A stretch of DNA of 32,000 bases. Origin: Candidatus Electronema aureum. GTDB lineage: Bacteria > Desulfobacterota > Desulfobulbia > Desulfobulbales > Desulfobulbaceae. The notes beneath the pieces are model-generated. The model had not been told where the DNA came from. It saw only the letters and a program-made list of their open reading frames with translations, and did no database searches. The stretch spans positions 90,263 through 122,262 of the forward strand of contig NQJD01000004.1 of assembly GCA_004284765.1 (NCBI GenBank), read 5' to 3'. Positions 19,012 through 22,614 of this stretch are shown here, piece by piece (positions within the stretch are counted from its first letter, which is position 1; every line of letters starts with the position of its first letter). Made by a program: the position numbers and the translations under genes.

Positions 19012-19015
<4 letters not shown>

Positions 19016-20001
19016 TTCGGTATACTGCACTGCCGTGCTGCCCGCACCTGCTCCAATTCCTCGCGGTCTTTCTCCAAATCAGGATGGCCGATATCCTCTT
19101 CAATCTGCACGGCCCGACTGATGTATTCCTCTGCCTTGGCAAGATCACCTTGGTTTTGGCAGGTGAGTCCAATGTTCCAGCAGGTGAAGGCTTCATGTGA
19201 TTTATCACCGACCTCCCGTGCTATCACCAAAGCTTGTTCCCAATACTCTATGGCCTTGGTAGTATTGCCCTGCTTATCGTAAATCCTAGCGATGTTGTTC
19301 AGGTTTGCACCTTCCACGATCTTGTTGCTAACCTCGATGTTGACAGACAGGCTCTGTTTAAGATAGGTCAAGGATGTCTCATAGTCGCCTTGGGCATCAT
19401 AAACTTGACTGATATTGTTCAGGGTCATTCCTTCCCCTTCCCGGTCGCCAATCTCTCGCATGATTGTCAGACTCTGCTCAAGATACTGCAAGACTTGCTC
19501 GTGCCTGTTCTGCACATGGTAAATTTCGGCGATGTTGTTCAGCGTCCACGCTTCTCCCTGCCTATCGGACAGCTCGCGGCGTATCGACAAGCTCTGCTCA
19601 TAGCAGGCCAACGCCTTCGCTAATTCGCCACGCTTCCGGCAGGTATAGCCCAGACTATTTAGGCACCAGCCTTCATCCTTGCGGTCGCCTGCCTGCCTTG
19701 CTGCATTAAGTCTCATAGTTATGGCAGCAATGTCCTCTGTCCAATATCCCTGCCGGTCTAAGTAAGTGCTGATTGCTCGCACCAAGACTTTTATCTCCTG
19801 CCACAGTTGGCTGTTCGAGCAACTCTTCATCACCCGCAAGCATTGCACCCGTTCCTTGTCCAAGCGGGCATAGCCTGCCGCACCACGAGCACTCTCTTTT
19901 TCTGCCAATGCGGTATAGTGTGCAGCAAGCCGCTGGCATACTCCGGCAAGCTCGGCACTTGAAGCCGCATGTTCAGGCATTGACGGGACTCTTATGATCA
20001 C
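19012..20001 (-). CDS. Stand-alone TPR-repeat protein, paralog 1 (putative partner/sensor of the NB-ARC ATPase)
   Basis: Repeating TPR_10/12-like units (..[43 protein letters not shown]..). The start is either GTG 20001 (GAGAGG 7 nt upstream) or ATG 19980 (MPEHAASS..). Its stop codon TGA (19012-19014) lies inside the valS relic. Confidence 0.85.
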
Positions 20002-20017
20002 ACTATGACCTCTCTTT

Positions 20018-20063
20018 CGGAGACACTATGGTCACTCCTGCGGAGATACTCTGGTGTCTCCTG
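20018..20063. repeat. Two tandem 23-nt hairpin-forming units between the TPR paralogs
   Basis: CGGAGACACTATGGTCACTCCTG / CGGAGATACTCTGGTGTCTCCTG, 19 of 23 identical. Each is an imperfect inverted repeat (GGAGAYAC..GTSWCTCC). A more degenerate third copy may lie at about 19995-20017. Confidence 0.7.
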
Positions 20064-20070
20064 CGAAGAG

Positions 20071-21051
20071 CTACGCCTCTCCGCCCTTTCCTTGTTCCAC
20101 TTGCCGCGCTGCCCGTACCCGTGCCAATCCCTCGCGGTATTTCTCCAAGGAAGGATGACCGATCTGCTCTGCAAGCTGCACGGCTTGGCTGATGTATTCC
20201 TCTACCTTGGCAAGGTTGCCGAGGTCTTTGCAGATGAGGCCGATGTTCCAAAACGACTCTGCTACTCCAACCCTGTCGCCAATCTGTTGATATATCGATA
20301 AGGCTTGTTCCAAATACTTCAACGCCTTAGCAGGCCTGCCAAAGGCACGGTAGATCATAGCGATGTTGTTCAGGGTTTGTCCTACTCCGATTTCATCGCC
20401 AGCCTCCCGCCTGATAGGTAGGCACTGTTCATAACAGGTCAAGGCTTGCTCGTAGTCGCCTTTGGTGTCATAAACCCCACCGATATTATTCAGGGTCGTA
20501 CCTTCTCCCTTCCGGTCGCCGATCTCCTGCCAGATGCTCAGACTCTGCTGATATTGTTCCAAGGCCTGCTCATACCTGCCCTGTGCATGGTAAATCGCGC
20601 CGATGTTGTTCAAGGTTGCGCCTTCTCCCTGCTTGTCTTCCACCTCGCGATGTATCGGCAGGCTTTGCTTATAATAGGTGAGAGCCTTCTCACGCTCGCC
20701 GCGCCTTTCACAGGTATAGCCAAGCTCATTCAGGCACCAAGCTTCATCCCTGCGGTCTTCAACTTGTTGAGCCGCAGTGAGTTGCATTTTTAGAGCAGCT
20801 AGTCGATCTGCCCAATGACCCTGCCGGTCAAGGTACTTCTGGATTGACCAGACCAACGCTTGCACCTCCTGCCACAGCTTGCTTGCCAAGCACCTCTCTA
20901 TCAACCGCAAGCACTGCACCCGCTCCTTATCCAAGCGGGCATACCCCGCCGCGCCACGAGCACTCTCCTTTTCTGCTAATGCAGTGTAGTGCGCAGCAAG
21001 CCGCTGGCATACTGCGGTCAGTTCCGCACTTGAAGCCGCATGTTCAGGCAT
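20071..21051 (-). CDS. Stand-alone TPR-repeat protein, paralog 2
   Basis: 326 aa from ATG 21051 ([22 protein letters not shown]...). It has the same repeat architecture as paralog 1. Its ATG overlaps the last codons and stop of the NB-ARC gene (AATGCCTGA, 8-nt overlap). Confidence 0.88.
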   Translation of the reverse strand: MPEHAASSAELTAVCQRLAAHYTALAEKESARGAAGYARLDKERVQCLRLIERCLASKLWQEVQALVWSIQKYLDRQGHWADRLAALKMQLTAAQQVEDRRDEAWCLNELGYTCERRGEREKALTYYKQSLPIHREVEDKQGEGATLNNIGAIYHAQGRYEQALEQYQQSLSIWQEIGDRKGEGTTLNNIGGVYDTKGDYEQALTCYEQCLPIRREAGDEIGVGQTLNNIAMIYRAFGRPAKALKYLEQALSIYQQIGDRVGVAESFWNIGLICKDLGNLAKVEEYISQAVQLAEQIGHPSLEKYREGLARVRAARQVEQGKGGEA

Positions 21052-22204
21052 TTGCAATGGTCTCCCACATGGATTTGGCATGAACTGTCAGGAGCGCGTG
21101 CATCTGAAAGCGCACCTCGCCATCCTCCTGATACGGCTCCAGCAGTCCGCGCTTCTCCAGCTCGCGGATTGCCGGACGCGGATCATCAACACCCCACGCA
21201 GCTGCTATGGCAGCACGATCAAAGGTTGCCGGTTTCGGCGCAAAGACTCCCAAGAAGGCAAACTGCTTCCGGGTCAGCGCATCAAGACGGTCTGTGCTTT
21301 TCCGTAGCAGTGCAGTCACAGAGGGTGTGGTCTGGCCGGATAAATCAGCGCGATCTGCGGGCGCAGCTTCTTGCAGCAGTCGGGTGCCTTCAGTCAGCTC
21401 GTCCAGCAACTCCCTGACTCCCCAGCCCATAGTTGCTTCGGCAGCAAGCAGGCTACCAGCAACACTTAACGCCAGCGGCATACCGTCTAACTCCTGCACC
21501 AGCTGCCGCACCCCTTGCTCATCCTGCGCCACAGACTCAGGCGAGAGCTGGCGGATCAGCTCGATGGAGTCCTCTTCCGACAGCACCAGCAGGCGGTACA
21601 CCGCCTTGTCCGGCAAGCCGAGCTTCCGGGCCACATCAGGCTCACGGGTGGTGAGCAGCGTTCGGCACGCCCGCCCGCCGACAAGGAAGGGCTGCGCGTC
21701 AGCGGCCTGCCACACGTCATCTATGATCAGCAGCATCCGGCGGTCGCGCAGCAGTCCGGCGAGCCGATTCTGCCGCTCTTCAATGCGCTGATACCGCTGC
21801 GGATCATCACCGAAGGCAAGCAGCCATTGCCCCAGTCCTGCCAAGGGATTGGGCGACATGCCCAAGGCCGTCCACAGCACGCCATCAGGGAACGCCTTCT
21901 TCACTTCGGCATCATGCGCCATAGCTGCCGCCAGCGTGGTCTTGCCAATGCCAGGCCAGCCCCGCACACTGGTGATCAAGGTTGTTGACGGCTCGCCAAA
22001 GAGACGCTGCCGCAGCGCAGCCATGTCGTTGTCACGCCCGATGAACAGGTTGGGTGGGGCTGGCAGTAGACTTGGAGAAGGAAAAAGCACAGGCTGCTTG
22101 CCGTCTGTATATACGTTAATCATTGTGGCATGGTCTTTGACCACGGTTTGACCGCCACTATTGCTGTCGTAGTTATCACCATGCACCTCAGTCTGGTTGC
22201 TCAT
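21044..22204 (-). CDS. NB-ARC (STAND) P-loop ATPase lacking a fused repeat sensor
   Basis: 386 aa. Motifs: Walker A VRGWPGIGKTTLA, Walker B MLLIIDDVW, LLTTR, GLPL-like LDGMPLAL, and MHD-like FQMHALL near the C-terminus. The N-terminal 31 aa resemble the start of the upstream 129-aa protein. GGGGGAAGGA precedes the ATG. Confidence 0.9.
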   Translation of the reverse strand: MSNQTEVHGDNYDSNSGGQTVVKDHATMINVYTDGKQPVLFPSPSLLPAPPNLFIGRDNDMAALRQRLFGEPSTTLITSVRGWPGIGKTTLAAAMAHDAEVKKAFPDGVLWTALGMSPNPLAGLGQWLLAFGDDPQRYQRIEERQNRLAGLLRDRRMLLIIDDVWQAADAQPFLVGGRACRTLLTTREPDVARKLGLPDKAVYRLLVLSEEDSIELIRQLSPESVAQDEQGVRQLVQELDGMPLALSVAGSLLAAEATMGWGVRELLDELTEGTRLLQEAAPADRADLSGQTTPSVTALLRKSTDRLDALTRKQFAFLGVFAPKPATFDRAAIAAAWGVDDPRPAIRELEKRGLLEPYQEDGEVRFQMHALLTVHAKSMWETIANA

Positions 22205-22224
22205 TCCTTCCCCCTGTCATTATC

Positions 22225-22614
22225 TCATGCTGCCCAATTCGTCCATTGCTCACCACACCAGATTAACCCCTGACCGAGCAGATTGCCAACAGCAACCGCC
22301 GCTTTAACAGTCTTTGAGCTTTCCTCCAAGATGGAGACCGCTTCTTTCAGACTGTCTGCTATTCTTTTCCGGTCAGGAGGATTCCTTCTCGCCAGTCTCA
22401 ACGCACCATTAACCTCGTGCTCCACATCCTCCTTGACTTCCTGCGCAACAGGCAGGTTTGAAAGCTCCTGCTTTGCTTTATCCAGAAGGGCAAGCAGCTC
22501 TTCAACCGGTGCCTGCTGGCTTATATTGATCTGCACAGCGTTGTCTTTGGCGATGTACTGCGGCCCGCCGCTACTTTCAAAGCTGTCTCCGTGAATAATC
22601 TTGATGTCACTCAT
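22225..22614 (-). CDS. Small hypothetical protein sharing an N-terminal motif with the NB-ARC ATPase (putative effector/adaptor)
   Basis: 129-aa ORF. AGGGGGAA lies 6 nt before the ATG. It starts 24 nt after the valS stop and ends 20 nt before the NB-ARC start. The middle is helical and charged, and the tail is hydrophobic and Trp-rich (AAVAVGNLLGQGLIWCGEQWTNWAA). I recognise no family. Confidence 0.65.
   Translation of the reverse strand: MSDIKIIHGDSFESSGGPQYIAKDNAVQINISQQAPVEELLALLDKAKQELSNLPVAQEVKEDVEHEVNGALRLARRNPPDRKRIADSLKEAVSILEESSKTVKAAVAVGNLLGQGLIWCGEQWTNWAA

Follow-up and report, generated by a model that had tools for sequence, protein, structure and literature searches.

Organization of the module

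The DNA considered here is a window of 32,000 nucleotides from Candidatus Electronema aureum, a cable bacterium of the Desulfobulbaceae (assembly GCA_004284765.1, contig NQJD01000004.1, positions 90,263 to 122,262 of the forward strand); all coordinates below count from the first letter of this window. On its minus strand the valyl-tRNA synthetase gene valS is followed, in this order, by a small gene, a gene coding for an NB-ARC ATPase and two genes (TPR1 and TPR2) coding for proteins made of tetratricopeptide repeats (TPR). These four genes (Table 1) appear to form an NLR-like module of the STAND class in which the switch, its sensors and a small partner protein are encoded separately.

An earlier note on this DNA, made from the sequence alone, described four co-directional genes behind valS that were separated by gaps of 20 to 24 nt or overlapped. 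The open reading frames (ORFs) and their translations bear out the four genes and their direction. The spacing holds for valS and the small gene (24 nt), for the small gene and the NB-ARC gene (20 nt) and for the next junction, whose sequence confirms an overlap of 8 nt between the end of the NB-ARC gene and the beginning of TPR1 (within ATGCCTGA), but it does not hold for TPR1 and TPR2. The latter lie 90 nt apart, or 69 nt if TPR2 starts at an alternative GTG at 20001, which would give a protein of 329 aa and has a Shine-Dalgarno-like site, GAGAGG, 7 nt upstream. The products were also described accurately: GWPGIGKTTLA, LLIIDDVW, TTR, GMPLAL and QMHALL are all present in the translation of the 386-aa ATPase, for which Pfam gives NB-ARC alone (8e-26, above the gathering cut-off) and no repeat domain, and the two TPR-only proteins of about 325 aa each match TPR_12/TPR_10 at about 1e-45, with NCBIfam in agreement. 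Both TPR proteins start with MPEHAASS, as had been noted. A fragment of valS abutting the 3' end of TPR2 is an addition to that description.

Table 1. Coordinates of the module and of the valS-derived sequence next to it.
Feature	Position	Strand	Description
valS	22639..25389	-	Intact, 916 aa (ORF and translation); upstream neighbour of the module
Small gene	22225..22614	-	129 aa; starts 24 nt past the valS stop
Small-protein motif, codons 1-33	22516..22614	-	Motif MSDIKIIHGDSFESSGGPQYIAKDNAVQINI, matched at the NB-ARC N-terminus
NB-ARC gene	21044..22204	-	386 aa; 20 nt past the small gene; sensor-less switch of the AP-ATPase type of STAND proteins
NB-ARC N-terminal segment, codons 1-45	22070..22204	-	Disordered in the AlphaFold2 model; carries motif MSNQTEVHGDNYDSNSGGQTVVKDHATMINVY
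TPR1	20071..21051	-	326 aa; ATG at 21051; Pfam TPR_12 2e-45
TPR1 constant segment, codons 1-49	20905..21051	-	Near-identical in TPR2; proposed docking piece
TPR1-TPR2 spacer	19981..20070	-	90 nt; stable RNA hairpin structure
TPR2	19012..19980	-	322 aa; Pfam TPR_12 5e-46; diverged paralog of TPR1
valS fragment	18842..19015	-	59 codons; Pfam tRNA-synt_1 4e-20

A clade of NB-ARC proteins with separately encoded TPR partners

The ATPase carries the features that define the NB-ARC clade, namely Walker A, a Walker B of the form hhhhDD, sensor-1 TTR, GMPLAL and an MHD-like motif in the winged helix. In an alignment of 16 diverse members, GWPGIGKTT, LLIIDDVW, TTR, GMPLAL and QMHALL are invariant. Its AlphaFold2 (AF2) model consists of a nucleotide-binding domain, helical domain 1 and a winged helix (NBD-HD1-WH) with a last helix at residues 370-385, residues 1-45 being disordered (pLDDT 22-30). 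The nearest relatives of solved structure are AfsR (E 1.5e-17) and Apaf-1 (E 1.4e-13), and plant NLRs are also found among the relatives in the PDB. The repeats that canonical NLR and STAND proteins carry on the same chain are absent, the protein terminating 16 residues after QMHALL.

This ending recurs among the relatives. A database search with the NB-ARC protein showed no TPR domain in any of the best 120 homologs (48-94% identical, 265-637 aa), and all 16 aligned diverse members finish 10-15 residues past RFQMHALLxxHAKS. A genome scan (one genome per species) yielded 78 loci, mostly from Chloroflexota but also from Acidobacteriota, a cyanobacterium, Brocadia, KSB1 and others. Tabulated as fused or split, none of the 74 family ORFs in these loci is a fused NB-ARC-TPR ORF (ORF and phmmer analysis). 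Downstream partners were counted in the 69 loci with at least 1.2 kb of downstream sequence: a TPR-like gene directly follows the NB-ARC gene in 48 of them by single-sequence search, and in 54 when a family profile built from the first 220 residues of the partners is used. The gaps between the two genes are mostly -4 to +10 nt, and 14 loci have two to four TPR genes in tandem. The N-terminal regions of clade members vary (bDLD1, EAD7, Trypsin_2, HNH, NERD, HTH, BTAD or short unannotated segments); judged by the domains that homologs carry there, the N-terminal position would be an output or adaptor slot.

For each of the four module proteins the nearest homologs are those of cable bacteria (Candidatus Electronema and Electrothrix; Desulfobulbaceae). 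The order valS, small gene, NB-ARC gene, TPR gene is shared, along with the 8-nt overlap, by three Electronema loci (L001, L002 and L003), and across the other Electronema contigs the NB-ARC protein is 76-94% identical to that of the window. Two further loci, L010 of E. halotolerans and L011 of Electronema sp. PJ, retain the order valS, NB-ARC gene, TPR gene; the small gene is present in L010 and not in L011.

The split is almost certainly genuine and conserved. The earlier note had proposed that switch, sensors and small partner are separate genes, which agrees with the recurrence of the same order and overlap and with the existence of a TPR-less clade with a conserved C-terminus. Its argument against a simple frameshift artefact is likewise strengthened, the split being inherited, as indicated by the recurrent overlap, the C-terminus of the clade and the purifying selection on TPR1 and TPR2 described below. 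Its premise that NB-ARC and TPR normally form one polypeptide, on the other hand, fails for this clade, in which the split form is the rule, and the layout is therefore less exceptional than had been held. Judging from these comparisons, the split form is ancestral and widespread rather than a one-off. Bacterial NLR-like receptors have been studied as single chains, with sensors inferred from the C-terminal repeats, and here a large clade keeps its sensors on separate genes. Since these can stand in tandem, single-gene searches would miss them and misjudge the diversity of the clade. The split clade overall merits description more than this one locus does.

TPR1 and TPR2 are old paralogs with a constant N-terminal segment

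TPR1 and TPR2 are 61% identical, with a synonymous divergence (dS) of 0.79 and a ratio of nonsynonymous to synonymous divergence (dN/dS) of 0.34, and are therefore old paralogs that are both under purifying selection. The resemblance of their DNA sets in precisely at the ATG. The first 49 residues are nearly the same (47/49 identical), with 14 synonymous differences and a dN/dS of 0.12 over codons 1-55, whereas identity beyond the N-terminus is 51-63%. The same pattern is seen in tandem TPR paralogs of other phyla, where almost all pairs whose N-termini can be aligned are more alike in the first 60 residues than in the remainder (identity 0.75-0.82 vs 0.48-0.55 in L027, 0.84 vs 0.46 in L039 and 0.63 vs 0.33 in L055). 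The N-termini of the partner TPR proteins follow the pattern MPSLREAQLRHAxHY...LFDxEWxNI, which corresponds to the segment after the winged helix in fused NLRs. From these comparisons, the constant N-terminal segment is probably the piece by which the TPR proteins dock onto the ATPase, the remainder being the variable sensor.

An intact TPR2 ortholog lies behind TPR1 in E. halotolerans (L010 10759-11727). The TPR1 gene itself is broken in L003 and L010; in the latter it is interrupted by an opposite-strand gene for an IS66-family transposase (L010:8282-9652), with TPR2 intact. The spacer between the two genes of the window folds into a hairpin (minimum free energy -35.4 kcal/mol, z -3.1, with 0/200 shuffles folding as well), and about 50 nt of it are about 90% conserved behind TPR1 in L001, L002, L003 and L011. 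The hairpin could be an mRNA end or a processing site. The conserved portion of the spacer persists after TPR1 in loci without TPR2.

Cable bacteria also encode fused NLRs, and comparison of TPR1 with these gives 29% identity over the first 34 residues and 54-66% from residue 35 onward (up to 87% in single 30-residue windows), whereas the NB-ARC body is only 13-38% identical to theirs. One type of TPR thus serves two unrelated types of NB-ARC, in cis and in trans. A hidden Markov model of the partner-TPR N-termini gives TPR1 and TPR2 9 bits and the fused NLRs 2-6 bits, a gap too small to assign the origin of the first 35 residues of TPR1. Capture of the TPR of a local fused NLR by an incoming NB-ARC gene was considered and dropped as the sole direction of exchange, as a split system outside Electronema (L099, below) already has a TPR1-type partner. 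A database search with TPR1 gave mostly repeat-driven matches and added little.

The small protein and its linkage to NLRs

The 129-aa product of the small gene has no match in Pfam or NCBIfam. In its AF2 model residues 1-33 are disordered and are followed by a four-helix bundle (helices 37-119, pLDDT about 90), the last helix of which is hydrophobic and Trp-rich. A profile search of the PDB with the small-protein family gave nothing below E 0.1. The close family is restricted to cable bacteria. A profile search with the small protein returned 91 cluster representatives, and the stand-alone form of 115-145 aa is the commonest in the family. In larger proteins (P0156, P0158, P0147, P0148 and similar) the bundle unit lies C-terminal to CHAT/caspase, dCTP-deaminase-like or long pentapeptide-repeat regions, and various short G/N/Q-rich motifs, for example GRDNIEISGNAQV and GRDYFEH, precede it.

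The small gene, seen throughout as the neighbour of an NLR, adjoins one, either split or fused, in L001-L003, in L010, in L004-L009 and in 8 of the 11 mostly short metagenome loci found in a scan with a narrow small-protein alignment. Electrothrix and the related metagenome contigs have genes for fused NB-ARC-TPR proteins of 647-707 aa behind the small gene, and in the three of these loci with upstream flank (L004, L006 and L007) the pair of small gene and NLR adjoins hrpA, not valS. The linkage of small gene and NLR is thus conserved in the homolog survey across split and fused NLRs.

L011 differs from the other Electronema loci in this respect. About 600 nt without a convincing ORF occupy the position of the small gene (L011:2864-3456), and the NB-ARC protein has a third, longer type of N-terminal motif, GEQNIAQGDEAIGKQVNI...GDSNIVAGSGNINIEQ. 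The partner of this protein may have been lost or may be encoded elsewhere.

A motif shared by the small protein and the NB-ARC protein

The N-termini of the two proteins align (MSDIKIIHGDSFESSGGPQYIAKDNAVQINI in the small protein with MSNQTEVHGDNYDSNSGGQTVVKDHATMINV in the NB-ARC protein), with a local alignment score of 73 (p<=0.0005 by shuffling). The shared motif is 25-30 residues long and rich in N, G, Q, V and I; the composition over 14 motif regions is N 12%, I 11%, V 9.5%, G 8.3%, Q 6.9%, K 4.8%, L 2.4% and P 2.4%. The same bias, enrichment in N, G, Q, V and I and depletion of K, P and L, has been described for the motifs of bacterial amyloid signalling sequences (BASS; Dyrka et al. 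2020, bioRxiv 10.1101/2020.01.06.895854). Also as in a BASS pair, a short motif of about 25 aa is shared between the N-terminus of an NLR and the product of an adjacent gene. The C-terminal placement of the motif in BASS effectors is not seen, the motif being N-terminal in the 129-aa protein and its relatives.

Between related loci the motif type switches in the small protein and the NB-ARC protein together. L001, L002 and L010 have another type in both partners (MNNTFNITSSTVTV... in the small protein and MSDTNISNSIVNIV... in the NB-ARC protein), while their NB-ARC bodies are still 81-94% identical to the window protein. The partners match each other in L002 (score 37, p 0.0045) and L010 (score 44, p 0.0025); significance is not reached for the L001 partners (score 26, p about 0.1). 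No match across types was found with the window type (scores 16-22, p>0.2). It seems likely from this co-variation that the small protein and the NB-ARC protein are paired through the motif. That the pairing works by amyloid-like templating is a more tentative proposal, somewhat short of an even chance, for which the disorder of both motif regions in the AF2 monomer models is the one indirect sign.

A comparable pairing exists in L099, which holds the closest non-Electronema NB-ARC relative examined (66% identical to the window protein). The NB-ARC protein of this locus shares GDYFEQ...VIK (p 4e-4) with the C-terminus of an upstream pentapeptide-repeat membrane protein, and a TPR1-type gene begins at the NB-ARC stop codon. 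In this stretch (L099:1930-5598) the upstream protein, of 619 aa and with a long multi-pass hydrophobic region, precedes the split-type NB-ARC protein P0010 in the same three-part logic with a different partner protein. In Electrothrix loci (L004:10414-10689, and also L006, L007, L008, L090 and L098) a gene for a 91-92-aa protein is placed between the small gene and the fused NLR. The N-terminus of this protein, MSKQTEVHGDNF..., nearly equals that of the window NB-ARC protein, and the NLR that follows begins with another motif, MINNSISFGTGDINIAQGDGAI.

The module is flanked by valS-derived sequence

The window valS is 84-94% identical to the valS of other Electronema loci, and in the related loci the small gene begins 24-26 nt after the valS stop. 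At the other end of the module, the fragment at 18842..19015 corresponds to valS codons about 513-571, including KMSKS, and is 88% identical in nucleotides to the window valS at 23853..23677; it abuts TPR2 and truncates its 3' end. Such valS-derived 3' remnants are found behind the TPR gene or genes in all five related loci. In E. halotolerans (L010:11727-12893) the remnant is an intact ORF of 388 codons equivalent to valS codons 528-916, beginning at the TPR2 stop (TGATGATG) and 89% identical to the valS of its own genome, with 37 synonymous derived changes against 9. In L001, L002, L003 and L011 the spacer-like stretch of about 50 nt is followed by scraps of valS codons about 780-916.

The module is thus located between valS and a direct repeat of the 3' half of valS. 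Read from the flanking sequences, the valS adjacency is consistent with an insertion scar, left either by integration of DNA carrying a piece of valS through recombination with valS or by local duplication, and we infer that the remnant then decayed to varying degrees across lineages. The fragment junctions differ (valS codon 513 in the window and 528 in E. halotolerans), and no integrase is found near the module. The earlier note's description of the module as appended to valS therefore stands insofar as the adjacency is present in related loci, but this adjacency reflects an insertion flanked by valS-derived sequence rather than a demonstrated functional tie to valS. Decay of the valS copy as a pseudogene was rejected as the sole reading, since the E. 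halotolerans copy is intact and its changes are mostly synonymous; a simpler explanation would be that the divergence accrued in the functional valS of another lineage before recombination.

A scan for promoters and terminators inside the module gave nothing above shuffle expectation. The gap between valS and the small gene is too short to hold a promoter, and none was predicted there, so that the module is probably transcribed by read-through from valS.

In two loci the valS copy ahead of the module is itself incomplete, starting only at codon about 370-394 (L002:3742-5437 and L011:1-2863), and is preceded by a shared opposite-strand cassette of HEPN and nucleotidyltransferase (MNT) genes. 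No 5' part of valS is found within 3.8 kb upstream in L002, and the L011 contig ends 1.2 kb upstream. Either valS is disrupted in these genomes and a second copy is present, or the module travels with a partial valS.

Comparison with known systems

PADLOC names no system here, in agreement with the earlier note, which had not recognized the layout. Apart from generic TPR models, it gives only weak matches: mad1/mad8 to the NB-ARC protein (E about 0.004-0.009) and PDC-M14B to residues 19-112 of the small protein (E 6e-4, 17.5 bits), with no M14A match in the other three proteins. None of the PADLOC Avs models matches the module proteins. No literature match was obtained for a cable-bacterial NB-ARC protein or for NB-ARC with a separate-gene tetratricopeptide, an absence that is no proof of the system being undescribed, and the layout is not described in the searched passages of the papers of Kaur et al. 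(PMC7159879, PMC8195603) or of the 2026 Avs paper (PMC13581612).

The closest precedents are motif-coupled. Bell/NLR pairs signal via a shared amyloid motif (BASS1-10; 10.1101/2020.01.06.895854). As is the case for the module, they occur in a multicellular bacterium as adjacent genes, one for an NB-ARC NLR and the other for a small helical protein (about 120-140 aa). The shared motif, which the NLR carries at its N-terminus, has some 25 residues, among which N, G, Q, V and I are abundant and L and P scarce, and motif families are exchanged between otherwise related pairs. The small protein of the module shows the mirror arrangement, with the motif N-terminal and the hydrophobic helix C-terminal; its helical domain has no detectable similarity to Bell, its NLR has no TPRs of its own, and any amyloid formed by its motif is putative. 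Among bacteria, such motif-coupled logic between a sensor and a bundle has been put to experiment only for Bab/Agp (BASS11), an abortive infection system of E. coli that was assayed for antiphage defence (Ibarlosa et al. 2024, bioRxiv 10.1101/2024.11.07.622273). There, as proposed for the module, a small helical-bundle protein is activated by a neighbouring larger TPR-containing sensor via a shared short amyloid motif, but the motif of Bab is C-terminal and Bab has neither a sequence nor a fold match with the 129-aa protein.

The NTP-dependent conflict systems with effector-associated domains (EADs) of Kaur et al. (2020, PMC7159879; 2021, PMC8195603), as far as the searched passages go, have an AP-ATPase STAND core, are enriched in multicellular prokaryotes and place the same adaptor element on the N-terminus of the NTPase and on a separate output protein (the 'EAD principle'). 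Two members of the clade examined here, P0016 (EAD7) and P0011 (bDLD1), carry such domains at the N-terminal position. The AP-ATPases in those passages are fused to C-terminal TPRs, and separate TPR gene arrays were not found there; the window proteins, for their part, have no catalogued EAD or bDLD (Pfam), just a short disordered motif. Avs proteins, in the corresponding passages of PMC13581612, likewise combine an output, a STAND switch and a TPR-like sensor, and binding of the trigger frees them from autoinhibition and leads to oligomerization. They are, however, single polypeptides with enzymatic N-terminal effectors, whereas the sensor and output of the module are separate and its sensors are tandem alternatives. 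AfsR, the SARP-NB-ARC-TPR regulator of Streptomyces (PDB 8k60, 8jke), and Apaf-1 have the same NBD-HD1-WH order, but both carry their repeats on the same chain, and their outputs are DNA-binding and CARD, respectively.

The module is thus not a single chain as canonical NLR and Avs proteins are. By analogy, its logic would follow that of the Bell/NLR BASS pairs, of Bab/Agp and of the EAD principle, differing in the separate and multiplied sensor, the mirror polarity and the bundle domain without a match; on this comparison, it is best described as a variant of known bacterial NLR-like conflict systems.

Proposed mechanism and alternatives

Our preferred reading is that the four genes of this multicellular cable bacterium make up a multi-gene module of the NLR-like (AP-ATPase/NB-ARC STAND) kind, which probably has a role in conflict or programmed death. 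Gene order, conservation patterns and the co-variation of the motif are the grounds for the following mechanism, in which the physical steps are conjectural. TPR1 and TPR2 would be alternative sensors that dock in trans, by their constant N-terminal segment, onto the winged helix and last helix of the NB-ARC protein and keep the ATPase off until a ligand is bound. Binding of the trigger would release the ATPase for nucleotide-dependent oligomerization, which would gather the N-terminal motifs into a beta-rich template, and this template would recruit or convert the same motif on the small protein. Clustered in this way, the four-helix bundles would be the output, with the membrane as the most likely target, reached through the last helix, which is hydrophobic and Trp-rich. 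That the small protein acts as an effector is something we infer, and that its bundle, as modelled, is a membrane executioner is possible though rather doubtful.

It may be, although we regard it as somewhat unlikely, that the system combines one switch and several plug-in sensors docking in trans by a segment of about 50 residues with motif templating on an undescribed four-helix partner, in a polarity mirroring that of Bell and HET-S, and that the Electronema cassette spread integrase-free through recombination at valS, a conserved essential gene of which it carries a piece. If docked sensors are interchangeable, new specificities could be added by duplication or import of a sensor gene, leaving the switch untouched. 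The layout would lend itself naturally to studying both the restraint and the release of a STAND switch by a sensor in trans, and resembles the division of labour between sensor and helper NLRs in plants. The co-varying motif would extend amyloid-type coupling to the Desulfobulbaceae and to a mirror topology. As cable bacteria are centimetre-long multicellular filaments, a regulated death or defence module would be relevant to how they handle infected cells.

Several observations weigh against the preferred reading. The motif is N-terminal in the small protein, whereas it is C-terminal in all described BASS effectors. The four-helix bundle matches solely generic bundles in the PDB (E>0.1), with no detectable relation to Bell, HeLo or Bab, and its last helix is just moderately hydrophobic and is packed in the AF2 model. 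The motif-plus-bundle unit is also the C-terminal part of CHAT and dCTP-deaminase-like proteins, so that the bundle could be an adaptor or regulator rather than an executioner. L011 has no small gene, and no named defence system is recognized by PADLOC. Folding or gene conversion, instead of docking, could account for the conserved N-terminus of the TPR proteins; dS is lower there (0.48) than elsewhere (0.7-1.2), which is why gene conversion could contribute.

One alternative is that a normal fused NB-ARC-TPR gene was broken by a frameshift or sequencing error, with TPR2 as a decaying duplicate. Fused proteins of 647-707 aa do adjoin members of the small-gene family, in Electrothrix and in related metagenome contigs, the combined length of the NB-ARC and TPR1 proteins is about the same, the TPR parts are 54-66% identical to those of the fused NLRs, and TPR1 is truly broken in L003 and L010 (by the IS66 transposase in L010). 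Yet loci whose proteins have diverged by 6-24% still retain the stop/start overlap; the NB-ARC body, so distant from the fused NLRs, belongs to a separate clade whose members all stop at the same place; TPR1 and TPR2 have kept a low dN/dS, lowest at the N-terminus, in spite of a dS of 0.79; and their homology begins exactly at the ATG. The recurrent overlap, the TPR-less clade and the constrained paralogs exclude a frameshift artefact, and we give this explanation practically no credence. Another possibility accepts the split but makes TPR2 a silent or spare sensor cassette rather than a second expressed sensor, its conserved 5' 150 nt serving as a homology arm for swapping the sensor part of TPR1, as in orphan toxin cassettes. 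The first 49 codons are near-identical and lower in dS, as expected from gene conversion, the structured 90-nt spacer has no obvious strong ribosome-binding site before the ATG at 19980, and relatives with a single TPR gene have lost TPR2. But dN/dS is 0.25-0.53 across the diverged body of TPR2, which indicates selection on the protein, the GAGAGG site lies 7 nt ahead of the GTG at 20001, tandem TPR genes in other phyla are spaced 3-30 nt apart like normal operon genes, and the TPR2 ortholog of E. halotolerans is intact, all of which makes a spare cassette very improbable.

Two further alternatives concern the output of the module. The small protein could be an adaptor, inhibitor or chaperone of the NB-ARC motif, with the real output encoded elsewhere, for example by the motif proteins fused to CHAT or dCTP deaminase at other loci. 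The constancy of motif-plus-bundle as the C-terminal part of proteins with recognized effector types at their N-terminus (CHAT, dCTP-deaminase-like), the second small motif protein of 91 aa in Electrothrix loci and the lack of a specific structural match for the bundle all speak for this. However, no other candidate effector is encoded in the operon of the window or its relatives, the stand-alone form of 115-145 aa is the commonest in the family, and in the precedents Bab, Bell and HET-S the motif-coupled small helical-bundle proteins are the executioners; we consider an adaptor role unlikely, while allowing it a real chance. The module might, alternatively, be a STAND-type regulator with a housekeeping or developmental role, possibly one tied to valS such as monitoring of ValRS or tRNA charging. 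NB-ARC/TPR proteins such as AfsR, the closest solved relative, are transcription regulators, HTH or BTAD domains occur on some clade members, the module is joined to valS in all Electronema loci, and the intact valS C-terminal-half ORF of E. halotolerans has changes that are mostly synonymous. On the other hand, Pfam finds no DNA-binding domain in the window NB-ARC protein, the homologous Electrothrix pairs of small gene and NLR adjoin hrpA, and the valS remnant is cut to 59 codons in the window and to scraps elsewhere. Sister proteins, moreover, bear nuclease, protease and death-like domains typical of conflict systems, and L004, L006 and L008 lie amid toxin-antitoxin genes. A regulatory role outside conflict therefore seems quite improbable.

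Other features of the window

Elsewhere in the window are found a thiamine operon with a TPP riboswitch, radA, a prephenate dehydratase fusion and htpG. The riboswitch (9436-9541; Rfam RF00059, 76.5 bits) precedes a cluster for thiamine biosynthesis comprising thiG, a radical-SAM/BATS gene, a ThiE-like gene and a ThiC-like gene. Two islands of low GC content (36-41% vs about 57% elsewhere) occupy positions 3442-4932 and 12000-13300. The first codes for a protein of 496 aa whose C-terminal domain is an HNH nuclease, and adjoins radA and a DUF4145 gene, and the second contains an ORF with a weak match to an IS200-like Y1 transposase. Both islands are probably foreign inserts.

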